From the NCBI GenBank assembly GCA_005776395.1, contig SXPJ01000048.1, forward strand, positions 24,211-88,210: a DNA stretch of 64,000 nt, in the 5' to 3' direction. A program made the position numbers and the translations under genes. The stretch is from Bdellovibrionales bacterium (GTDB lineage Bacteria; Bdellovibrionota; FAC87; UBA2466). Below, one piece after another: positions 1 through 40,096 of the stretch. Within the stretch, counting starts at the first letter, position 1; every line of letters begins with the position of its first letter. Under the pieces are notes generated by a model, which saw only the letters and a list, made by a program, of their open reading frames with translations, ran no database searches and was not told where the DNA came from.

Positions 1-309
1 CTTCAAGTAGGGACTAAAACAGTGCCCCATCACTAAGGTGAGCCCCGCCCCAGTTAAAAGCCAAGGGGTAGTTGCAGGATAAAACCTCGTCAACGCCCAA
101 AGGGGTAGATAGCCTTTAATGAAATCAAGGACAAAAACCAAGAATCCAGCATACCAACCAAAGACTCGGGTGACATTAGTAGCACCTATGTTGCCACTCC
201 CCATCTCACGAACATCGAGTCCGAACTTGCGCTTGGTAATAGCCACTCCCGCAGGAAAACCGCCAAGTAAATAACAGCCTAAAATAATGAGAAGATCTAA
301 GGGGTTCAC
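1..309 (-). CDS. plsY: Glycerol-3-phosphate acyltransferase PlsY. The gene runs off the window edge. Start is probably GTG at 309.
   Basis: Manual reverse translation gives ...LDLLIILGCYLLGGFPAGVAITKRKFGLDVREMGSGNIGATNVTRVFGW...LDFIKGYLPLW...GHCFSPYLK. The SGN(I/P)GATNV and D.xKG.LP motifs are diagnostic of PlsY. Not in the ORF track because it is truncated. Confidence 0.75.
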   Translation of the reverse strand, partial: MNPLDLLIILGCYLLGGFPAGVAITKRKFGLDVREMGSGNIGATNVTRVFGWYAGFLVFVLDFIKGYLPLWALTRFYPATTPWLLTGAGLTLVMGHCFSPYLK

Positions 310-415
310 AGTTTTCTTATACCGCCTGATTGTCTATTTGGCACTGAAAAGAAAAGAGGCAAGGTTTTCCTTTTCAATTCTTCTGAGTTATGGAAGGTTA
401 GAAACTTCTAAATCC

Positions 416-489
416 GGGCGGTTAGCTCAGCTGGATAGAGCACATGGCTTCGAACCATGGGGTCAGGGGTTCGACTCCCTTACCGCCCA
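416..489 (+). tRNA. tRNA-Arg (anticodon UCG)
   Basis: Cloverleaf GGGCGGT/ACCGCCC acceptor, D-arm GCTC-AGCTGGATA-GAGC, anticodon stem CATGG/CCATG with loop CUUCGAA (anticodon UCG), T-arm AGGGG-TTCGACT-CCCTT, discriminator A. CCA is not encoded. Confidence 0.88.
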
Positions 490-592
490 AATTCTTCTTA
501 AAGCCCATCCATTCGTGTTACAATTTCCTTACACATATAATTTTAAACAAGAATTGGACCCGCAAAAATCAAGATAGATTAGGTGGCAGCGA

Positions 593-1816
593 ATGAATTT
601 TAAAATATGTAGTCTATGGATTTGTTTTCTTATCTCAATTACTTTTTTTAAACCTCTATTAGGTGCTGAAGATTCTTGGGATTATGGAAAAAAATGTGCA
701 GAGGAGTTAGGTGTAGAACTCCCTGCTATCGATTGTAACCAAGGGGCTACCGTGCCCGTCACCGGAGCAGCAAATGATAAGTGCGATCGCCCCTCATTTG
801 GTGTTGCACACTGTTACACAGGAAGCAAAGTTCTCCAACTTACAGCTCAATTTAAACGGACCCCCAACGGTCCCCAAGAAAAAGTGGTGACGACTGTTCA
901 ATGTAGAAAAGGCAAGGGAGATGGAGACTATGAATTAGCGGTGATACAGTACAATGAAACTAATAATAAATCGTGTTGGTGGTTTCCTGGCTACAGAACG
1001 ACTCTTCCCAAACCCTATGATGCCAATATCGAAAGACAAGGGGGCAATGCCCTAACAACATTTCAAAAAAATTCAAGGGCAAGATGGGGAAACTCCTTGC
1101 AAACCCAAGACTGTACGGGCTGTCATACGAATGGTGTTTATATCAGGTCCCCTTGGATCATGCAGATTGATGGATCGGAAGCGGGAAGTTTTGTTCGCAA
1201 TGAAAGAACCGGAGCATACGAACCGGGGGGAAGGATCAGATTTCCTTCAACTATCAATAGACGAGGATATTCCTGCGCCGTAGAACCGGGACAGACCTAC
1301 CCGGAACTTGTGAAGATCAACAGTGCCGCCTTTGACAGCTATAAGTATAATGCAACAAATCCCAGGCCTCCAAATACAGCGCCCTCCGATACCTGTACCA
1401 AATGCCATTTCATGGGCTTTGGAGGATCGGTTTGTAGCATGAGTCGTGTAGGCCTCGGGGAACATGTGACAAATAGCACTTTGAAATACCCTGATAATCG
1501 ATGGATGCCTCCGATAAGTGACTGGCCGAGTGAATTAATCCCCAAGGACAACGACACCCAAGAGAAAAAAGACCAGCTAGAAAAAAAGTTTCTTGAATAT
1601 TATAAGCCCGCTATTGACGCTGTCTTATACTGTTGCGATTCTGCGAACCAAGGACGAAAAGTTAATGTGAGGGGTGAACCTGTCGACATTTGCCAAGGGG
1701 GGGAAGTATTTAATGAAACAAGAACAAGAAACCCCAGTCGACCCTGTCCCGAGCCAGTGGGGCAAATAAGAAGGCCAATTAAAAATAGTACATCTACTGA
1801 AGAACCAACGCATTAA
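593..1816 (+). CDS. Cys-rich exported protein with two CXXCH motifs (possible c-type heme sites); unknown function
   Basis: N-terminal signal peptide (MNFKICSLWICFLISITFF...). Many Cys, including DCTGCHTNG and DTCTKCHFMG. The last ~40 codons are duplicated in inverted orientation at 3218..3345. Confidence 0.6.
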   Translation: MNFKICSLWICFLISITFFKPLLGAEDSWDYGKKCAEELGVELPAIDCNQGATVPVTGAANDKCDRPSFGVAHCYTGSKVLQLTAQFKRTPNGPQEKVVTTVQCRKGKGDGDYELAVIQYNETNNKSCWWFPGYRTTLPKPYDANIERQGGNALTTFQKNSRARWGNSLQTQDCTGCHTNGVYIRSPWIMQIDGSEAGSFVRNERTGAYEPGGRIRFPSTINRRGYSCAVEPGQTYPELVKINSAAFDSYKYNATNPRPPNTAPSDTCTKCHFMGFGGSVCSMSRVGLGEHVTNSTLKYPDNRWMPPISDWPSELIPKDNDTQEKKDQLEKKFLEYYKPAIDAVLYCCDSANQGRKVNVRGEPVDICQGGEVFNETRTRNPSRPCPEPVGQIRRPIKNSTSTEEPTH

Positions 1817-1820
1817 CAGG
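1691..1820. repeat. Left arm of a ~130-bp inverted repeat, partner at 3218..3345, ~96% identity
   Basis: The reverse complement of 1691..1820 aligns with 3218..3345 with 3 substitutions and a 2-nt indel. Confidence 0.85.
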
Positions 1821-2135
1821 AGAAATGACTGCGATTTCTCACGACTGCTCTTGAAAGGCTTATATTCGTTTTGTTTGTACTTACTCACCACAACTTGGCT
1901 TCAATTCGATAAAGCGAGAGCTTTCTTTGAGGCCCCTTCTCGAAAAGCAATTCTGACGATTACTCTTATAGCTATGCTTGTCATCTAACTTATATCAGGG
2001 GTCAGCAGCAGGATCCCACCTTGAATTAATTGATGAATGAATCAGAAAGTTTCTCACTTTGTGTGTACGACGTTTCTTGTAAAGTTTCGGATATCTTGAT
2101 AACTTCACACAAGTTCTCGTAAAAAAGGAGATTAC

Positions 2136-3122
2136 ATGTCTATTTACTGGCGCTTTTCGGGATTGTTTGTAGGAATTTTATGTGTAGCCATCGCTTTCCA
2201 AAGCATTGGAGCTATCGGAAGCGAAATCTATTATGAGGTCTTTAAGCCCGGTGATACCGTCACGGACCAATCCACTGACAGCTCGCACTCTTATCTAGTT
2301 GGCTATGAAGGGCAAGTTCCTGATACCGAATTTGCGGACAAAATCGCCAAGACGGCACTTGCTGCCCACGCAAGCCTTTACATGGTCTTTAACCAGTGCT
2401 TCTCGGGGGGATTTATCGATGAGCTTTCAAAGTTGGGAGGAACACAGTTCATTTTCACTGCCGCCCGTCATTCGGAAACAGCCAGTTATGGATCCCCAGC
2501 GCCCAGCGGTGTAGATCTAGACTCTACCGACACTTTTAATATCGCGCTCGCCGATGGCAACGTTCCAGCCTCGATCGTTGCAGCAGAATCGGTCGCACTA
2601 AATCCCTTTGGCCCTAATCCAAATGCCAAACGCATAGGTGAATCCATGGGAAGTGAGCATGCTCAATATTTAGCCATTGGCGGCGGTGACCAACTACGAC
2701 CTGCCAATTTTGCCGACAGAGGGATAGCGATCCTTTGGGCCGGCCATCCCGCGGAGCGCGATGGCAAACAAATGAGTTTGATGATCGACCGCCTTATCAG
2801 TATGGGATTTAACGCCAACAAGATCTGGCTATTTTATGGGGCAGGAACCATTGAAGCATCCCACCCGATCGCCAAAACCCATTTCGTAGGAAAAGCTCAG
2901 CCAATTAATCTTCAGGCGGCGCTACCGAAAAATCTATTTTCCGTATTTGAAAATTCTTTTAACGAGAAAAATTCGACGCCCCCTGAGTTTGTCTTCTTCT
3001 ATGTCGGGGATCACGGGGGACTTAACTTCAAGGAGGTTGCTAAAACCGGTTTCACTCCCGATCCACTCGTTGCGCCGAACTTTTCAATGAAGCCAGGAAT
3101 AAAAACTTATGGAAACAAGTAG
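2136..3122 (+). CDS. Exported/membrane-anchored hypothetical protein. Possible clan-CD-like Cys/His motifs (NQCFSGGF, GDHGG); speculative.
   Basis: Good RBS (AAGGAG) 8 nt upstream of the ATG. N-terminal hydrophobic segment. GC is higher than the flanks. Sits between the two IR arms. Confidence 0.55.
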   Translation: MSIYWRFSGLFVGILCVAIAFQSIGAIGSEIYYEVFKPGDTVTDQSTDSSHSYLVGYEGQVPDTEFADKIAKTALAAHASLYMVFNQCFSGGFIDELSKLGGTQFIFTAARHSETASYGSPAPSGVDLDSTDTFNIALADGNVPASIVAAESVALNPFGPNPNAKRIGESMGSEHAQYLAIGGGDQLRPANFADRGIAILWAGHPAERDGKQMSLMIDRLISMGFNANKIWLFYGAGTIEASHPIAKTHFVGKAQPINLQAALPKNLFSVFENSFNEKNSTPPEFVFFYVGDHGGLNFKEVAKTGFTPDPLVAPNFSMKPGIKTYGNK

Positions 3123-3217
3123 TTCGGTATTGCCACATACCAGAAAACGCTGAACTAAAACACAATACTCTGAATCTCCAAGTCCGTCGAATCGATAAAT
3201 ACAGTTCTCGATTACTA

Positions 3218-3345
3218 CCTGTTAATGCGTTGGCTCTTCAGTAGATGTGCTATTTTTAATTGGCCTTCTTATTTGCCCCACTGGCTCGGGACAGGGTCGA
3301 CTGGGGTTTCTTGTTCTGGTTTCATTAAATACTCCCCCCTTGGCA
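3218..3345 (-). pseudogene. Frameshifted 3'-terminal fragment of a paralog of the 593..1816 gene (right IR arm)
   Basis: Minus-strand translation reproduces ...VFNETRTRNPSRPCPEPVGQIRRPIKNSTSTEEPTH*, but a 2-nt deletion in the G-run breaks the frame upstream. Confidence 0.55.
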
Positions 3346-3393
3346 TTTGAGGTTGTTATAAAGGGGGGAATTTTAGGGTGCAAGGCTAGTTCT

Positions 3394-4572
3394 CTAGATT
3401 AGGGCTCCCAATATTTTCTCATAGCTTCCCACGTGGATTCGTTTATCGGAATAGTATTTCAAATAGTTCTTTTCCGTTACAAGCTGGAAGTTATGTTGGG
3501 TTTTCAACTGAGCTTGAAATTTAATCAGAGTGGGGCTCAACGTTCGCGAATTTGACTTGCACTCGACCAACATCCAAGGTTTTTTATCTCGAGTGATACA
3601 AAAATCCACCTCGGCTTTGTCCTTGGTCCGAAGAAAGTGTAAATCAAATTCCCCTTGGGCTGTATCCGTCCAGAAATGACAGGCTTTCAAAAGATGTAGA
3701 GCGGTTAGGTTCTCTAAGCGCTTAGGAATGGAACTAATCTGTAAGGAGTCAAATAAGTACAGTTTCCGTTCGGCCCTTACCATGCGATTTAACTTTCCAA
3801 CATAAGGACGAATCAAAAAACAGTGATAAAGCACTTCGAGAACCTGGATCCAATCACGAATGGTCGCATAGGCAACACCCACATCCTCTCTTAAGCTATT
3901 CATGGAAAGAAGTGAGCCCACCCGTTCTGGAAGCAGATCAACCAAGACTTTCACAGCCTGTATATCATCGACAGCTCGAAAATCTCTGACATCTTCTTGA
4001 ACAAGACGCTCTAACCGTAAACGACTCCATCGTGCTGCTTTGGAAACACTGGCCTGCATAAATGGTTCTGGAAAACCCGAATACTGCACAAGATCATCCC
4101 AGGAATAGGGGGCGGGACCTTTTAAGAAGGACTCGCATTCGTCGGGAGAGTGTGGGGTTGTCGTTTCTCCAACTGAAAAGGGGTGTAGACGATAAGGAAT
4201 ATACCTTCCCATTAAACTGTCCCCGCCCTTTCTATAAAAATCTAACCGTGCACTTCCGGTAACTAGAATATGTAAACTATTACCTCTCATGTCATAGAGC
4301 CCTTTTAGGCGTTGCTTCCACCGACGATCTTTATGAATTTCATCCAGAACGATAATCCCCTGCATTTCATTCCCAATTGCAATTTCTGGATCTTTAACCC
4401 ATTTTTTTCTGAATCCAGTGCTATCCCAATTGAAATACTGTTGGGGAACTTGAAGCAAACCTTTGGCAAGGGTGGATTTTCCCACCTGCCTGGGGCCTGA
4501 GATAAACGCCATTTTATTGGATTTAAGGGCGTCTTCAGTAATCAAATTTTGTAAATAACGTTGCCGCATCAT
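3394..4572 (-). CDS. AAA+ ATPase of the COG1373 / DUF4143 family (predicted ATP-binding protein)
   Basis: Walker A GPRQVGKST near the N-terminus. Overall architecture typical of AAA_14 + DUF4143 proteins. Confidence 0.8.
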   Translation of the reverse strand: MMRQRYLQNLITEDALKSNKMAFISGPRQVGKSTLAKGLLQVPQQYFNWDSTGFRKKWVKDPEIAIGNEMQGIIVLDEIHKDRRWKQRLKGLYDMRGNSLHILVTGSARLDFYRKGGDSLMGRYIPYRLHPFSVGETTTPHSPDECESFLKGPAPYSWDDLVQYSGFPEPFMQASVSKAARWSRLRLERLVQEDVRDFRAVDDIQAVKVLVDLLPERVGSLLSMNSLREDVGVAYATIRDWIQVLEVLYHCFLIRPYVGKLNRMVRAERKLYLFDSLQISSIPKRLENLTALHLLKACHFWTDTAQGEFDLHFLRTKDKAEVDFCITRDKKPWMLVECKSNSRTLSPTLIKFQAQLKTQHNFQLVTEKNYLKYYSDKRIHVGSYEKILGALI

Positions 4573-4689
4573 AGCCTCTCATATAACTGATAGATAGCCG
4601 CGTCCAGTTATCAGTTTAGTAAGAAGATGTTTGAAAGACAAGGTAATTGAAAGAACCCCTTTTCGTGAACCTGTGGTCTTCTGTTTGGA

Positions 4690-5040
4690 TATTGTAAGAA
4701 ATGGTCGGGGTGGCCCTACAGTGGTTGAACCAATGGTCGTGGTGCGAGAGCACACCCGGCGATGTGGGTGAAATCATCATGAGTTGGGCTGGCTACCAGG
4801 CTTTGGTGAACCGATTGGGAGGATAACGTAATTTCAGGTCACGCGGATCATTTTACGGTGCCAGGCTGGACGGGCCCCGGCCACCTTTAACTCTTCCTGG
4901 TTGGATGTGAGTATTTAAACCTTTTGCGGTACCTGGACCGCCGTTCCGAGCAGTTGGTGTGTCGCTAATTCCTCGTGTGTCGCATTCATTTTTCGCAAGT
5001 TCTCTACTCCCTCCCTCTGCCGGGTCCTTTTTTTTGCTCT
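4690..5040. other. GC-rich (~55%) non-coding block; candidate structured RNA or decayed foreign DNA
   Basis: No ORF of 60 aa or more in any frame across 4573..4914 despite high GC. Local GNRA-capped hairpins (GTGC-GAGA-GCAC; CACCC..GGGTG). Ends in a T8 run at 5031..5038. Confidence 0.3.
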
Positions 5041-5154
5041 CAATTTTGACAAGATTTTCAACCTACCCGATATCTGTACGAACCCGTTTACTATACCGAT
5101 ATCATTCATCATTCGGTAAAACCCTTCAAATCAAACTCTCCCCAAATCGCCGAA

Positions 5155-5406
5155 ATGTACTTAAAAGATGGCCTTTCCGCGTCCCAGATCTCCGACAGAC
5201 TTGGAATTTCAAAGACGGCGGTTTTGGGGCGATTGCACGCTCTCGGCATACGAAAACTGACTTCGAGCAGTGAGAGGATAACCACCCCGAAGAACTATCG
5301 CGCATCGGTTGCGCCCTACGGGTATCGCAACGTTGATGGTCAGTTACTAGCGAACCGGAAGGAGGTTCGCATATGCAGGGTAGTGGCTCCAACGATAAAG
5401 GCGTAG
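5155..5406 (+). CDS. GcrA-like N-terminal HTH domain protein fragment (tentative)
   Basis: GLSASQISDRLGISKTAVLGRLHALGI resembles the GcrA DNA-binding N-domain (GLSASQIA..LG.SRNAVIGKVHRLGL). The C-terminal part is unlike GcrA. Embedded in GC-rich DNA where overlapping ORFs occur on both strands. Confidence 0.3.
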   Translation: MYLKDGLSASQISDRLGISKTAVLGRLHALGIRKLTSSSERITTPKNYRASVAPYGYRNVDGQLLANRKEVRICRVVAPTIKA

Positions 5407-5533
5407 GGAGAAAACATCCATGAAGAATCGGAATCAGGCACAATAAGGGAAACTGACCCAAGCACAAAGGCCATCATCCCAATGGCGGATAGCCGTGTAC
5501 CCCTCGTCATTTCCTTATGTTCATCGTTCCACA

Positions 5534-5857
5534 TTATGATTTCATCTCGTAAAGGTTGCCCCCACAATATCGACAGAATTTAATTCGCAACGATCCTCCA
5601 AGATAGAACCGACAAGTGGGGCACTTCCAAATCCCGCGGAATAGGATTTGCTGAAGGAGAAAACCCAGCCCAATCAACAAGAGGAAAATCGGAGCTCTTA
5701 ACGCAATTTCAAACAACACATATAGATTCTTGTTGTTTGCCCATTTAATGATCGAAGATAGGCAACTTTGCTCAACGTAAACCAGAGCAAAGCCCGTTAA
5801 GAGACCGAGACCAAGGTTCGCAAAGTAGAGTCGTTTTCTTATGACATCAGGAGACAT
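5534..5857 (-). CDS. Small membrane protein with C-terminal zinc-ribbon (CPTC...CRYC)
   Basis: ATG start, two hydrophobic segments, CxxC-x13-CxxC at the C-terminus. Confidence 0.4.
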   Translation of the reverse strand: MSPDVIRKRLYFANLGLGLLTGFALVYVEQSCLSSIIKWANNKNLYVLFEIALRAPIFLLLIGLGFLLQQILFRGIWKCPTCRFYLGGSLRIKFCRYCGGNLYEMKS

Positions 5858-5863
5858 TTAGAT

Positions 5864-6139
5864 CTATTCGGATTCGGGAGAATTCCACCCATCAATAAAG
5901 GCTTTGATGCTGATGTCTTCATCCACTTCTGGCCAATGGATTCCGTACCCATAGGGATCGATCTCGAATTTCTTAAGTTGCGCAGCCGAAGCATTGGATA
6001 AACGCTCCGACCAGGCGATTGGAATTGACACCTCTCGGCCGTCATCAAGAACGGCGGTAATAATGTCTTTACCGATTTTTAGATCCTTTATAGCCGGGTA
6101 GATTCTTTCCGGTTTATTTTTTTTTGCTAAAGAACTCAT
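5864..6139 (-). CDS. DUF2442 family protein
   Basis: ...ITAVLDDGREVSIPIAWSERL...IHWPEVDEDISIKAFIDGW is typical of DUF2442. ATG at 6139 preferred over the upstream TTG at 6232. Confidence 0.6.
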   Translation of the reverse strand: MSSLAKKNKPERIYPAIKDLKIGKDIITAVLDDGREVSIPIAWSERLSNASAAQLKKFEIDPYGYGIHWPEVDEDISIKAFIDGWNSPESE

Positions 6140-6356
6140 TCCATTCCTCCACAAATTTTTCTTTCTTGTTTCTGATGATTCCCAGAATATCTCTCTGTTC
6201 CCGAGGAGAGTAACCACGTACGTCTGCGACAATGACTTCAGGCAGCCAGACTTTCATGATGCCGCCTTTTCCTCTCACATGAACGTGACAAGGTTCATTT
6301 CCTTCGTTGCTAAAAAAACGAAACTGGTATCCTTTCTCAGTGTGTATCGTTGGCAC
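6114..6356 (-). CDS. DUF4160 family protein
   Basis: MPTIHTEKGYQFRFFSNEGNEPCHVHV matches the DUF4160 N-terminal signature (..F.FysnE..ePpHvHv). GTG start. Overlaps the DUF2442 gene by 26 nt. Confidence 0.65.
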   Translation of the reverse strand: MPTIHTEKGYQFRFFSNEGNEPCHVHVRGKGGIMKVWLPEVIVADVRGYSPREQRDILGIIRNKKEKFVEEWNEFFSKKK

Positions 6357-6469
6357 TTAAGCTCCGCTTGAATCCAAAAGCCTTTGGTTCGAATCCGTTC
6401 AAGATGTCAGGCCAGAAATCTTCCCATCATTTCGGGAACATGTGGTCGCCAAAATTCAAAAAATTTCAA

Positions 6470-6543
6470 TCGGGGTGGCGAGATTTGAACTCACTACCCT
6501 CTGCTCCCAAAGCAGATGCGCTAGCCAACTGCGCTACACCCCG
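6470..6543 (-). tRNA. tRNA-Pro (anticodon UGG)
   Basis: Minus-strand cloverleaf CGGGGTG/CACCCCG acceptor, D-arm GCGC-AGTTGGCTA-GCGC, anticodon stem TCTGC/GCAGA with loop UUUGGGA (anticodon UGG), T-arm GTGAG-TTCAAAT-CTCGC, discriminator A. Confidence 0.88.
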
Positions 6544-6953
6544 ATAAAGATTACTTCAGTTGCTTTGGTAACTTAGATTACCTCCTTTCTTTTGTCCACA
6601 TCTTCCATTGGGCTTCATGGAAGATTCGTGAAAGATTTTGATTTTTAGCAAGATTTCCACGCTTGAGATGAGGTGTATTAAGTTAAAACCCACATAGCAC
6701 TATCTTTCGATACTCCATGCGACCATCAACACTTGATAGATGATTTGCCTTTTGAGGGAATTACTTTGTTGCTAGATAGGATGTTCAGATTTGGAATAGA
6801 TTTTCATTTAGAATGCGGCGAGCAAGTATCACCATGAGATAATATGCAAAATTTCCATGATGGGAGCCAGGCAATTTCCAAAGAATGAGTCCACCGGAAA
6901 TACAGGCGGTAACGAGGGTTCGGTGGCAATCTGGATGTGGGCCATAAATAACC

Positions 6954-7220
6954 TTGAAACCAGCATTAAGCTCGCAAGAGATAATTCGGGAAAAATTAAC
7001 GCCCGAAAGAGCCTATCATCTCGACATGAATCAATCTTACATATTCACCTACTATGACAGTGAAATCACCGCCGATGTAACCATGCACCTTGGGACTGAT
7101 TTAGGATGCTTAAGGCGGGACAGGTTAGCCAATCATTCGTTAATGATTTACCGTTTTAATGCCAGTGGGAGCTGGGGAGTGTTCTGTGTTTGCGGACGAA
7201 TCGTTTGGGATTTTCATTAG
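6954..7220 (+). CDS. Hypothetical small protein (weak)
   Basis: 88-aa ORF with no recognisable motif, followed by a hairpin terminator. Confidence 0.25.
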   Translation: MKPALSSQEIIREKLTPERAYHLDMNQSYIFTYYDSEITADVTMHLGTDLGCLRRDRLANHSLMIYRFNASGSWGVFCVCGRIVWDFH

Positions 7221-7235
7221 TAGGTCAAAAAGAAA

Positions 7236-7275
7236 AAGCCGACCAGATTTTCATCGTCGGCTTTCCCTAAATTAT
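7236..7275. terminator. Rho-independent terminator-like hairpin
   Basis: GCCGAC-CAGATTTTCATC-GTCGGC stem-loop followed by a T-rich tract. Confidence 0.45.
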
Positions 7276-7384
7276 TTTAATAGCGTTATCTTAGTTGTAT
7301 TCGCAGGATAATTCTAATGAAGAACCGCCAGAACTCTTTTGAGTAGAACTGGCGATTCTTGCTAACTGAGTTCCGTAACCGGAA

Positions 7385-7633
7385 TTAGTTGATTGAACAG
7401 ATTCGGACCAATGAGTGTGAAGCAATGTCATAGCTGTGCGAGCACTCAATGCGACTGGCGCGAACAGTGAAGGTTCCGCTGTTCAGCTCTTCGATTTTGA
7501 CCCCTGCTTTTTTAAGAGCTGAGTAGAGGTTGAGTGCTGGGGTCACAGCAGGCGACAAATGCTTTTTTGATACGTTATCAGTGAGCGTTCCTTGTGCCCA
7601 TATAAATCCATGTGGGGTATATTCCATTCTCAC
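7385..7633 (-). CDS. Hypothetical protein; possibly the remnant of a larger exported protein whose signal peptide has no start codon
   Basis: The upstream in-frame sequence encodes a signal-peptide-like ...KSVFLSLFFFSLIAQASDGLKVKGEKAKAV... with no ATG/GTG/TTG before the preceding stop. Confidence 0.3.
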   Translation of the reverse strand: MRMEYTPHGFIWAQGTLTDNVSKKHLSPAVTPALNLYSALKKAGVKIEELNSGTFTVRASRIECSHSYDIASHSLVRICSIN

Positions 7634-8029
7634 ATCAGAAACATCCCAAGAAGCGCTTTCAATGGCTTCTAGCGTAACAGCTCCAACGCTCTGTAGGGCA
7701 TCGATAACAGCTTTTGCCTTCTCACCCTTAACCTTAAGGCCATCGCTAGCCTGGGCTATGAGTGAAAAAAAGAATAAAGATAAGAAAACACTTTTTATGG
7801 GGACCTCTTTTTGGGTGGACTATTCTACAGGTAAACAAAAAACCACTCTTCTAATTCGAGTAGGACCAAACCACATTCCGAGGAATTTAACGCGTAACGT
7901 ATAAAATATCCAGGAATATAACTTCGTGAAAAATTCATGATTAAAAAACTTCATCTTAAAGAGTCGCAATTGGCAATGAACAGAGTAAAAAGAGCCTTAA
8001 TAAAAACTGTCCAAACCTAAAAAAGTCGC

Positions 8030-8719
8030 TTAGAAACTTGCACTCAAAGAATAAAACAAGACATGATTCTGTCTATCAGATACCGATCTCGGTTTATGAA
8101 CATAATTGAACAAATAAGCCACATCAGAATTTAAATTCTTTGCCCACTGATAATTAAAACCTACATACAATCGGTTTTGATCAAAGCCTGAAGCAGGTCC
8201 CGTCACGGCCGTAGTATTTAGATTAAAGAAAAACTCATTAGCCAGTAGAGCTTTGAAGTTCGAGTTATCAAACCAAGAATGCAAAGTTCTTAACTGGTAA
8301 CGAAGTCTGTAAGCCTTATCTAAAGTCGTATTAATCGCTCTGTACTCTGCTCTAAAGCGATGAATAAAATTACTTTTAGTTCCAACATTATGATTAAAAA
8401 TGTACTGAAGAAAGATTCGAGTTTCGTTGGATGCTGATGGAGAAAAAGAGGGCTGCCAGAGAAATCCAGCTCCTACAGAGTTCTGAGAATTAATATGATA
8501 AATCGGCGCTAATCGAGCTACAAATGTAGCAAGCTCCCCCTCCGAAAAGGAGATACGAGGCTGAATTTCGGTAAAAAAACTTAAAGAATCGGAAAGTGAA
8601 ACCGTTTGATTGAGCTGTATCCAATTCTCAAGCTTACTATCCGCATTAACGGGTGTAATAGGAACTAAAAATAAAATCAGCCCAACTGCAAGATATTTCA
8701 ATGATTGAAGAACTTTCAC
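8030..8719 (-). CDS. Outer-membrane beta-barrel protein (DUF2490-like, tentative)
   Basis: Signal peptide, alternating amphipathic strands, C-terminal ...YSLSASF typical of outer-membrane beta-barrels. Confidence 0.5.
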   Translation of the reverse strand: MKVLQSLKYLAVGLILFLVPITPVNADSKLENWIQLNQTVSLSDSLSFFTEIQPRISFSEGELATFVARLAPIYHINSQNSVGAGFLWQPSFSPSASNETRIFLQYIFNHNVGTKSNFIHRFRAEYRAINTTLDKAYRLRYQLRTLHSWFDNSNFKALLANEFFFNLNTTAVTGPASGFDQNRLYVGFNYQWAKNLNSDVAYLFNYVHKPRSVSDRQNHVLFYSLSASF

Positions 8720-8835
8720 ATGCGCCCCCTAAGCCTATATTTTAATTATAAAAATTCTATCCTACACCTCCTTTTAGGCAAATACTTTCTCGTTAAGATT
8801 GCATTGTTTTCACTGGATAGATAAAACCCCTTTCA

Positions 8836-9924
8836 ATGACAGCCTCTATCTGCTCACCCTCAATCTCTCTTCCACCTTCTCGCCTTCACAAGCTTGGGCT
8901 CTCTTTTCCCTTTATGGTGGCTCCTATGGTGGGGATTAGCCATGTGGCCTTTCGAGAGCTAATACGAAGCTATCTACCTGATTCCCTCTCCCCCCTTCTT
9001 TTTACTGAAATGTTATCTACGCTAAGACTTCCCCATGAGGATCTAAGTGATCTTCCCGGCCCCTTAACTAGCTTAGGAGAAAACTATTTTGTTCCACAGC
9101 TCTTAGGTAATGATGAGACCTACATTTCTAACTCAATTGAAAGACTTTTGCCGTTTCACCCTTGGGGCTTTGATATCAATATGGGATGTCCAGCCTCTCA
9201 TCAACTTCAACACAATTGGGGTGTCCGACTTCTGGGTGACATAGACTATGCTTCACATGTTGTTGCCATTACAAAAAAACATTCTCCTAGACCTGTGAGT
9301 GTGAAGTTAAGAGCTGCCACAGGAGCTTATATCGACCTAAAATATCTTTTAGAGTTCACAAAAATGATGGAAGAGTCAGGGGCCGATTGGATAACACTTC
9401 ACTGTCGCACCCAAAATCAAGGGCACCACGGATATGCTCATTGGGATCTTGTAGGAGAGGTAGCTAGAGCCAGAAAAATCCCTGTAGTTGCAAATGGAGA
9501 TATTCATACTTGGCAAGATGCTATCGACTTAATGAAAACTTATCAGGTCGATGGAGCCATGATTGCTAGAGCGGCTACGGCTCGACCTTGGATTCTATGG
9601 CAAATAGCTAAAAAATTGGGCTATCAAGAAAAACCGACAAAGAGATGGGAAACTGAACCTCCTTGGACTCCTGATGAGGAAGGAAAAGAATATTTTAGAG
9701 CCGTTCTTAGATTCTCCTGTTTACTTGAAGATCATTTCACTGACTCTCCTTTTGCACTAAAAAAACTTCAGTTTTTTGTGGCACAAGGATCACGTTGGTT
9801 GCTATTTGGTCACCAGTTTTTTCATCTAGTGAAACGGTGTAAAAACTTGGTAGAGGTTCGAGATTTTGTAAATGACTACGCAGAAAAGACCCCTCAACCC
9901 ATGGGACAACGGGCAAGAACCTAA
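8836..9924 (+). CDS. tRNA-dihydrouridine synthase (Dus family). True start may be the internal MVAPM at 8914.
   Basis: APMVGISHVAFREL, DINMGCPA, VKLRAATG, ITLHCRTQ...PVVANGDI...DGAMIARAATARPWI match conserved Dus motifs. Confidence 0.85.
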   Translation: MTASICSPSISLPPSRLHKLGLSFPFMVAPMVGISHVAFRELIRSYLPDSLSPLLFTEMLSTLRLPHEDLSDLPGPLTSLGENYFVPQLLGNDETYISNSIERLLPFHPWGFDINMGCPASHQLQHNWGVRLLGDIDYASHVVAITKKHSPRPVSVKLRAATGAYIDLKYLLEFTKMMEESGADWITLHCRTQNQGHHGYAHWDLVGEVARARKIPVVANGDIHTWQDAIDLMKTYQVDGAMIARAATARPWILWQIAKKLGYQEKPTKRWETEPPWTPDEEGKEYFRAVLRFSCLLEDHFTDSPFALKKLQFFVAQGSRWLLFGHQFFHLVKRCKNLVEVRDFVNDYAEKTPQPMGQRART

Positions 9925-22695: not shown

Positions 22696-22923
22696 TGATT
22701 TTAGACTAAAATAAAAATAACGGGTCTGGCTACAAAAACTAGAATTACTTTCTTTGAATTATTTAAATTAAATCAATAAGTTATAATTACCCATTAAGCG
22801 TCTTAAAATTCAATTTTATCCCCCCCTATTTGATTCGTATTGCGTTCCATTTGGAAACCCCCACAAAACATTCGCAATTTTTCTTCGCTTTTAATCAGCC
22901 CCAAGGAACTCTATAGTAAAAAG

Positions 22924-23313
22924 ATGAGACCTTTACGAGTAACGCGAAAGCCACTGGACCCTGAGTTTCAAAAAACAGAAGTTCTTCGCATCTCTCAGCT
23001 TATTTCATCAACTGTTCATCCTTTAGCGATTTATAGTTTTGGTTCGGCAGCGGAAAATAAAGCCACGGATCAATCCGATTTTGATTTTTTAATAGTAGTA
23101 GAAGATTCTGAAAATTTGACTAAGGCAAGAATCAAATTGAGAAAGCTCATGCCTCTATCTCAATTCCCAGTTGATCTTATTTGGAAAAAAAGAACAGAGT
23201 TTTTAACCCAACGAGAGATAGGTGGGATTGCTTGGGTTGTCTGGGAAGATGGTAACTGTACTTTTCATACTAACTCCAAGGAGTTTATCAATGACAAAAA
23301 AACGAAAATTTAA
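22924..23313 (+). CDS. Minimal nucleotidyltransferase (MntA-like antitoxin) of an MNT-HEPN pair
   Basis: IYSFGSAAENKATDQSDFDFLIVVE is the GS...SD.D nucleotidyltransferase signature. Confidence 0.7.
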   Translation: MRPLRVTRKPLDPEFQKTEVLRISQLISSTVHPLAIYSFGSAAENKATDQSDFDFLIVVEDSENLTKARIKLRKLMPLSQFPVDLIWKKRTEFLTQREIGGIAWVVWEDGNCTFHTNSKEFINDKKTKI

Positions 23314-23689
23314 AAAAGAATATTCTGTGGAGTTACTTCGAATTGCCGAGGGAGATCTGCAGACTGCTAGAGGCCTTATTCAAGTTAAGATGGGAAGACG
23401 GGAGAATATTTTTTTCCATCTAGAGCAAGCCATAGAAAAGGCTCTCAAAGCAGTTCTCTGCTCACGAGAAATTGCGACTCCTTTTGTTCATGAAATGGGA
23501 ATTGTATTAGAGCTATTTCCAGCCGACTTAGAAGTTCCTCGTTCTGAGGAGATGTTAGATTTAGGACAGTTTGCTACTATTCGTCGTTATGAGGAAGATA
23601 TTGCTGATCTCACGGATGAAGAGGTTCAGGCTACTCTTGATTTAGCTGTTCAAACCTTGGATTGGGCTAAAAATAATTTGGGAAAATAG
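23291..23689 (+). CDS. HEPN-domain protein (HepT-like toxin)
   Basis: RRENIFFH R-x(4-6)-H motif inside a helical HEPN-like region. Overlaps the MNT gene by 23 nt. Confidence 0.7.
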   Translation: MTKKRKFKKEYSVELLRIAEGDLQTARGLIQVKMGRRENIFFHLEQAIEKALKAVLCSREIATPFVHEMGIVLELFPADLEVPRSEEMLDLGQFATIRRYEEDIADLTDEEVQATLDLAVQTLDWAKNNLGK

Positions 23690-23758: not shown

Positions 23759-24100
23759 TCACTCGAGGGCTTTGCATAATTTGTAAAGGTGACGAGCGAG
23801 TTTGTCCGTGATTTCATTCAATTCAGCGTTATGAATCTCAAGTAATTGAAGAGCTCCTATACTTTCACGAAAACTGCCAAGAGCAATACGGTAGAATCTT
23901 GCTCTGTCTTTGGGACTGGGTTTAGCCGAGCCACTTCTGCAGATAGGCGAAGGTTCTTCCAGATCGCTTTTGGGAGTCACAGAGAAGTACAAGCCATTAT
24001 TCAACTTGAACCTGATGAATTTAACGAAAAGGAACGAGATACTTTGGACCCTCTAGCTGCCAGCGTCTTCAAACTCTTGCGCAATTGCCTGGCGCCTTGA
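23759..24100. pseudogene. Two overlapping, oppositely oriented C-terminal fragments of four-helix-bundle (PF05635 / Avd-like) genes
   Basis: Minus ORF: ...KDRARFYRIALGSFRESIGALQLL. Plus ORF: ...ADRRRFFQIAFGSHREVQAIIQL...SVFKLLRNCLAP*. Both match the C-terminal half of PF05635 (f.~fL.iA.GS..E). The N-terminal halves are absent. Confidence 0.45.
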
Positions 24101-24150
24101 CCGCAACCCGGTATGCCGGTTTTGCTGCAATGCCGAAATCAGATATCAGC
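24062..24150. repeat. Repeat R1, copy a (inverted copy at 39950..40038, ~90% identity)
   Basis: The reverse complement aligns with 39950..40038. Corresponds to the 3' end of the four-helix-bundle gene plus ~50 nt downstream. Confidence 0.8.
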
Positions 24151-39949: not shown

Positions 39950-40096
39950 GCTGATTTCTGATTTCGGCATTGCGGCAACCGGCACACCGAGTTGCGGTCA
40001 AGGCACCCGGTAATTGCGCAAGAGTTTGAAGACGCTGACGTTTCCCGTATGCACCACCGCTGAATCGATTCCCGCATGGCCATTGCTGCAGCCCTA
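39950..40096 (-). pseudogene. Repeat R1 copy b with a 33-codon C-terminal remnant of a four-helix-bundle gene
   Basis: Minus-strand ...GIDSAVVHTGNVSVFKLLRNYRVP* parallels ...LDPLAASVFKLLRNCLAP* at 24100. 39950..40038 aligns with the reverse complement of 24062..24150. Confidence 0.5.

Follow-up and report, generated by a model that had tools for sequence, protein, structure and literature searches.

Invertons such as fimS consist of a small promoter-bearing segment between short inverted repeats of about 10-40 bp, and the segment is turned by a dedicated invertase. The repeats that take part in RecA-dependent inversion, such as rRNA operons and copies of insertion sequences (IS), are kilobases long and present in multiple copies. 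Programmed inversions that alter genes have been catalogued, including exceptional ones with no recombinase close by (Milman et al. 2023, PMC9881135). In the staggered-break model, which was put forward for Drosophila chromosomes and for much larger inversions, inverted duplicates flank the inverted segment (Ranz et al. 2007, PMC1885836). Here we describe a pair of inverted repeats of about 130 bp in 64,000 nucleotides of a Bdellovibrionales bacterium (NCBI GenBank assembly GCA_005776395.1, contig SXPJ01000048.1, positions 24,211 to 88,210 of the forward strand), the whole of which is referred to as the window. The left arm is formed by the 3' end of one gene (gene 1), and the right arm lies beyond a second gene (gene 2) that the two arms enclose. 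We believe that the right arm is probably the relic of an inverted partial duplication and at most a passive substrate for rare RecA-dependent inversion, and we infer that the tail copy has no dedicated function.

A repeat scan placed the inverted arms at 1699-1820 and 3218-3339, where they are 122 nt long, 97% complementary, free of gaps and 1397 nt apart; BLASTN against the whole window lengthened the pair to 1691-1820 / 3345-3218 (130 columns, 96.2%, E = 2e-55). When the arms were aligned with MAFFT and compared directly, they differed at 1720 (A/C), 1789 (T/C) and 1804 (A/G), given as left/right in the sense of the left arm, and by a single gap, a 2-nt GA deletion at the outer G-run, which reads G7AA on the left and G6A on the right. 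The longest perfect stretch is 68 nt (1721-1788). The initial annotation, which had reported an inverted repeat of about 130 bp with three substitutions and a 2-nt indel, is thus confirmed. No third copy was found when the region was searched by BLASTN against the whole 64-kb window. Since a scan of all 64 kb returned no other repeat longer than 61 nt, the pair is far beyond chance.

The left arm (1691..1820, plus strand) starts at the first base of codon 367 of gene 1 and covers codons 367-407, the stop codon (1814-1816) and 4 nt beyond it. The right arm (3218..3345, minus strand) is an inverted copy of this tail, with synonymous third-position differences at 3318, 3249 and 3234 and the 2-nt GA deletion. 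It had been described as frameshifted, which holds for the outermost two codons (TGC CAA) but not for the other 38 codons and the stop codon, all of which are intact and in frame. With three differences in 122 nt, the copy is shown, on sequence grounds, to be either recent or homogenised.

Gene 1 (593..1816, plus strand) encodes a secreted protein of 407 amino acids that is rich in cysteine, begins with a signal-like N-terminus and contains two conserved CxxCH haem-binding motifs, both invariant in all relatives. No Pfam family was assigned to it, and its only match in NCBIfam was a sub-threshold one to a CxxCH cytochrome domain. A word-indexed search of 5.8 billion proteins returned three relatives: two are full-length, at 69% and 47% identity, and the third aligns to 41% of the query at 30% identity. 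When 1.84 billion representatives were searched with a profile, 666 distant clusters came up, most of them matching over the first ~190 profile positions alone, which reach to the first CxxCH; PAN, TIG, fn3 or P-domain modules are present in some of the distant clusters that were sampled. The structure model of gene 1 is unusable, with a mean predicted local distance difference test score (pLDDT) of 39 and a score of about 25 for the tail. The relatives P0002, P0025 and P0003 end in a homologous, indel-rich tail, IC.GG..F.E..NPSRPC...P..N...E.P.H. Because relatives at 47-69% identity have a homologous tail, the left arm is, as judged from these alignments, the native end of gene 1 and the right arm the derived copy, and the earlier description of the repeat as a copy of the gene tail stands. 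Two further entries in the 90% cluster of P0002, P0026 and P0027, are unrelated proteins of 55 amino acids; they reflect a clustering artefact of the protein collection and are not a gene fragment.

The derived copy stands by itself. When gene 1 was compared by tblastn with the window and with the 9.4 kb upstream of it (present in contig L001), the only match was to residues 370-407, at 3338-3225, and no further fragment of gene 1 or of a paralog was found in these 74 kb. The copy is contained in an open reading frame (ORF) of 53 codons (3222..3383, minus strand) that begins with TTG, lacks a Shine-Dalgarno sequence and is uncalled on the source contig. This ORF starts 10 nt past the stop codon of the adjacent ATPase gene, in a different frame, and is probably not a gene. 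The right arm therefore looks as a relic should, being an isolated and uncalled copy of a unique native sequence that lacks a ribosome-binding site, with the caveat that its substitutions are synonymous only.

The 1397 nt between the arms consist of a spacer, gene 2 and a second spacer, all read on the plus strand. The first spacer (1821..2135, 315 nt) is AT-rich (GC 0.39) and carries a strong Shine-Dalgarno sequence (AAGGAG) ahead of the ATG of gene 2; the second (3123..3217) fills the 95 nt that separate the gene-2 stop codon from the right arm. Neither 1817-2135 nor 3123-3217 contains a predicted terminator. Gene 2 (2136..3122) is the sole gene within the repeat, as the initial annotation had it, and encodes a protein of 328 amino acids with an N-terminal signal or membrane anchor, for which the predicted structure suggests a distant caspase/legumain-like fold with a Cys motif ahead of a His motif. 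Its GC content at third codon positions (GC3) is 0.48, whereas that of the housekeeping genes of the window is 0.33-0.39. Relatives of gene 2 lie in unrelated neighbourhoods, never beside a relative of gene 1; comparable inverted repeats were not detected at their loci, and viral contigs yielded no gene-2 relative. Beyond the right arm follows a gene for an ATPase of the AAA_14/DUF4143 type (3394..4572, minus strand), which is convergent with gene 2 and matches the PADLOC defence candidate PDC-S01. The deviant GC3 of gene 2 and the ATPase, which is of a type found in defence islands, both point to a variable region.

A recombinase, integrase, transposase or reverse transcriptase was found neither among the ORFs of at least 120 amino acids in the window, which were searched against Pfam, nor among the genes called in the upstream 9.4 kb, and domains of these kinds were likewise not found in the small ORFs of 4572-8030. 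In this last interval the ORFs gave no Pfam matches, and a decayed integrase was not detected.

To see how the arms are joined to their flanks in other public data, all contigs that encode the exact gene-1, gene-2 or ATPase protein were gathered from an index of public assemblies. A flipped locus would be retrievable in this way, because it would still encode the same proteins. Those that carry an arm together with both its flanks, L002-L004 and L006, belong to the NCBI metagenome assembly GCA_005801785.1, to Logan assemblies of two runs or to a second ENA assembly. The left arm is crossed by four contigs (L001-L004), all of which run on into 1821 onwards, and the right arm by two (L001 and L006), in both of which 3217 leads into the arm and the arm into the ATPase gene. 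Over the arms none of these contigs departs from the window (100% identity), and the variants specific to each arm are never shuffled. A further contig, L007, assembled at k=31, ends in the shared 68-nt core at both sides and is uninformative on orientation. Contigs L002 and L003 end at 1861 and L004 at 1874, and L006 starts at 2060, that is, 40-240 nt into the spacer and off the arm edge; these ends are probably due to low coverage of the AT-rich stretch, or possibly to a strain-level variant.

Given that the pair is unique in 64 kb, that the tail is native and that no other fragment of gene 1 exists in 74 kb; that a single orientation was seen, no recombinase was found and the relatives of gene 2 lack such repeats; that the 53-codon ORF has no ribosome-binding site and local RNA folds at the locus are no better than those of shuffled sequence; and that the GC3 of gene 2 and the defence-type ATPase point to a variable region, we favour a relic inverted duplication as the origin of the right arm. 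We propose that a one-off rearrangement would have put 130 bp of the 3' end of gene 1, inverted, beyond gene 2 and next to the accessory region. This could have happened by either of two routes. In the first, the segment 1821-3217 would itself have been inverted, the left break being staggered across the gene tail, so that inverted duplicates came to flank the segment exactly; gene 2 would then formerly have run in the same direction as the ATPase gene. In the second, a longer inverted paralog of gene 1 would have been present, the body of which was later replaced by arriving accessory DNA, namely the ATPase gene and the rest. In the nearest genome, the best match in GTDB by PlsY, that protein is only 58% identical and a contig ends at the site. 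The other gene-1 loci are on short contigs only (47-69% identity), and a scan of JGI metagenomes with the gene-1 alignment returned only an already known contig of 1956 nt. On either route the pair of arms would still be a passive substrate for rare RecA-dependent inversion or for gene conversion.

Several observations weigh against a relic. First, all three substitutions between the arms are synonymous third-position changes in the frame of gene 1. By enumeration over the actual codons (n=3), the chance of a synonymous-only outcome is P = 0.012-0.021 if both arms are neutral and P = 0.05-0.08 if only the left arm is constrained. The pattern hints that the copy is, or was recently, under coding constraint, or that it swaps sequence with the left arm; it would be expected of arms that exchange sequence, whether by conversion or by inversion, or of a translated copy, and with n=3 it is only a hint. 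Second, the outer edge of the right arm forms part of a candidate bidirectional terminator hairpin (3333..3369) between the convergent gene 2 and ATPase gene, in which a C-run of the arm (3334-3339) pairs with a G-run outside it (3363-3368). This hairpin has predicted folding free energies (dG) of -19 kcal/mol (plus strand) and -17 kcal/mol (minus strand), with AAUUUUA following it on the plus strand. G or C runs of at least 6 occur about once per 2.6 kb, and the chance that the C6 and G6 runs should come to lie 24 nt apart is about 0.01-0.02. Third, the junction-crossing contigs, in none of which the inverted orientation was seen, represent the majority path only, so that a minority orientation is possible; they furthermore stem from one near-clonal population (1-2 differences in 4-12 kb), probably from one study. 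Finally, long inverted repeats are present in two of the three sampled lineages of the gene-1 family. Contig L008, the sole sequenced locus of the 69% relative, has an AT-rich inverted repeat of 120 nt (96%, spacer 1357 nt) that is unrelated to that of the window; its arms (163-282 and 1640-1759, with a third partial copy at 1829-1863) bracket the whole gene-1 relative, and contig L100, from a 95%-identical strain of another study, breaks at the same arms (1-28 and 1413-1440). No such repeat was found at L010, the locus of the 47% relative. Because the architecture at L008 and L100 differs from that of the window, this repeat gives no support for a conserved mechanism; noncoding homology between the flanks of L008 and those of the window was not significant against shuffles.

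The alternative that survives best, although we consider it unlikely, is that the 1.4-kb segment flips at a useful frequency by recombination between the arms that depends on RecA and on no dedicated recombinase. The initial annotation had suggested inversion by recombination between the arms, and physically this is possible, as 130 bp with a perfect core of 68 bp exceeds the length that RecA requires. Gene 2 would receive read-through from gene 1 in one state, there being no strong terminator between the two genes, and would be co-directional with the ATPase gene in the other. Either arm would at times be the end of gene 1, so that both would be held translatable, in line with the finding that 3/3 differences are synonymous. 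Nor would gene 1 suffer, as its frame and protein are unchanged by a crossover anywhere in the 122-nt in-frame part, given that no substitution changes a residue and that the 38 residues and the stop codon are common to both arms. However, all contigs have one orientation, the arm variants are never shuffled, an invertase was not found among the ORFs and called genes searched in 74 kb, and the relatives of gene 2 lie at loci without such repeats. The segment would indeed flip gene 2 with respect to upstream transcription, as had been pointed out, but gene 2 carries its own 315-nt upstream region, and since that region and the Shine-Dalgarno sequence move with the segment, a flip need not switch anything. 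Moreover, the repeats are at the extreme 3' ends and the coding sequences are arranged tail to tail, so that inversion alters no coding sequence, unlike programmed inversions of the gene-altering kind (PMC9881135). A switch is therefore possible in principle, with neither evidence nor an obvious pay-off in its favour.

Action at the level of RNA is in our view quite improbable. Gene-2 transcripts would carry the whole right arm, because the hairpin, if it is a terminator, ends them beyond the arm, so that 130 nt of the gene-2 messenger would be antisense to the terminal part of the gene-1 messenger. Were the two genes co-transcribed, the arms of the transcript would pair into a stem of about 130 bp with gene 2 in its loop; such a duplex, as a target of RNase III, could couple the fates of both messages. 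The duplex has a predicted dG of -241 kcal/mol, the hairpin at 3333-3369 and its AAUUUUA lie downstream of the right arm, and the stretches 1817-2135 and 3123-3217 are free of predicted terminators, all of which suit such a role. Yet any inverted copy would pair in this manner, so that the pairing itself is no evidence; the arrangement is not conserved at other loci of gene 1 or gene 2; and cleavage would take off the stop codon of gene 1, which looks harmful.

Very improbable, too, is a further proposal that starts from the synonymous substitutions, namely that selection keeps both arms translatable because the gene-2 cassette flips by homologous recombination, which would make the locus an invertase-free, gene-sized inverton with coding arms. 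If this were true, the repeat at L008 and L100 would be a second, differently built instance in the gene-1 family.

There is even less reason to expect that the 53-codon ORF is translated, for example by re-initiation after the stop codon of the ATPase gene, into a small protein that has its last 38 residues in common with gene 1; this we regard as highly improbable. The ORF is open, its 38 shared codons differ from those of gene 1 only synonymously and its start is a mere 10 nt past the ATPase stop. Against this, the start codon is TTG, no Shine-Dalgarno sequence precedes it, the frame differs from that of the ATPase gene, the ORF is uncalled on the source contig, and the shared tail has a pLDDT of about 25 and is indel-variable among relatives. 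A chimeric inverted join, for which the origin of the window from a metagenome assembly might speak, is almost certainly not the explanation, given that the arms recur with both flanks in separate assemblies and runs (the left in L002-L004, the right in L006) and that three sites and one indel differ between the arms, each variant being tied to its own flank.

The stretch to the right of the locus (3394-8030) has an accessory look. Besides the ATPase gene it holds a GcrA-like helix-turn-helix fragment (5155-5406), a DUF4160/DUF2442 pair (5864-6356) and a tRNA-Pro (6469-6544), and about 3 kb of it are without credible ORFs. Position 6495, in the tRNA-Pro, is T in the window and G in two other assemblies. 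Rfam matches in positions 1-9000 were two tRNAs only. The remaining window is ordinary chromosome, with genes for DnaE, Prs, L25, Pth, YchF and others. At 22840-23689 a nucleotidyltransferase gene and a HEPN gene are adjacent in a toxin-antitoxin-like arrangement, and the nucleotidyltransferase matches the PADLOC candidate PDC-S09. A second, shorter inverted pair of 61 nt (24061-24121 / 39977-40037, 92%) lies in two intergenic regions 15.9 kb apart; by eye its similarity reaches about 80 nt, and its GC content seems higher than that of the neighbouring sequence. Candidate explanations are a small dispersed repeat and an element, regulatory or RNA, common to both regions.

The locus matters little as it stands: from a bacterial lineage that has hardly been sampled, it adds one small and clean case of a gene duplicated in part and in inverted orientation. 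It does carry a caution: a long inverted repeat is not in itself a switch, and where, as here, the arms reach to the stop codon and encode the same peptide, gene 1 is unaffected by a flip. If both orientations were to be found in reads, the locus would become an unusual, gene-sized invertible cassette that needs no invertase. Of more lasting use may be the two uncharacterised secreted families themselves, one bearing CxxCH motifs and the other with a caspase-like fold.

How, then, does the locus compare with known systems? In that a gene ends, at its very 3' terminus, in one of two near-identical copies of ~130 nt, the locus recalls the variable and template repeats (VR/TR) of diversity-generating retroelements (DGR). 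We reject this assignment: the ORFs and called genes searched in 74 kb included no reverse transcriptase, the two copies face in opposite directions, and their differences, all of them synonymous, show no specificity for adenine. We likewise reject the ends of an IS, of a miniature inverted-repeat transposable element (MITE) or of a composite transposon: no transposase was found among the ORFs and called genes searched, there are only two copies in 74 kb and one of them is a native gene tail. No direct repeat of the kind left by target-site duplication flanks the arms in the sequence.

With invertons such as fimS the locus shares inverted repeats that bracket a segment whose flip could change transcription, but the repeats here are 130 bp long, the segment holds a whole gene with its own upstream region, and an invertase was not found. 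Homologous recombination between inverted copies, as it takes place between rRNA operons or IS copies in a RecA-dependent manner, could act here as well; in contrast to those cases, the repeats are 130 bp long and form a single pair, and no inversion was observed. The likeness to gene-altering inversions and shufflon-like loci is that one arm is coding, and its partner, less than 15 kb off, belongs to a silent fragment of the opposite strand (PMC9881135). In contrast to such loci, the arms here reach the stop codon and differ only synonymously, no recombinase was found nearby, and no second orientation or variant was seen in the contigs. Set beside a programmed inversion, then, the locus has the flanking inverted repeats and has neither a detectable recombinase nor a change in coding sequence, nor a demonstrable one in the pairing of promoter and gene. 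In its workings it amounts to no more than two homologous sequences in inverted orientation. With the staggered-break model it shares the inverted doubling of a unique gene 3' end exactly at the ends of a segment, and the want of any transposon or recombinase; that model differs in concerning Drosophila and larger inversions, and here no relative close enough to show the un-inverted ancestor was found. Taken together, the feature fits the general class of relic inverted segmental duplications.

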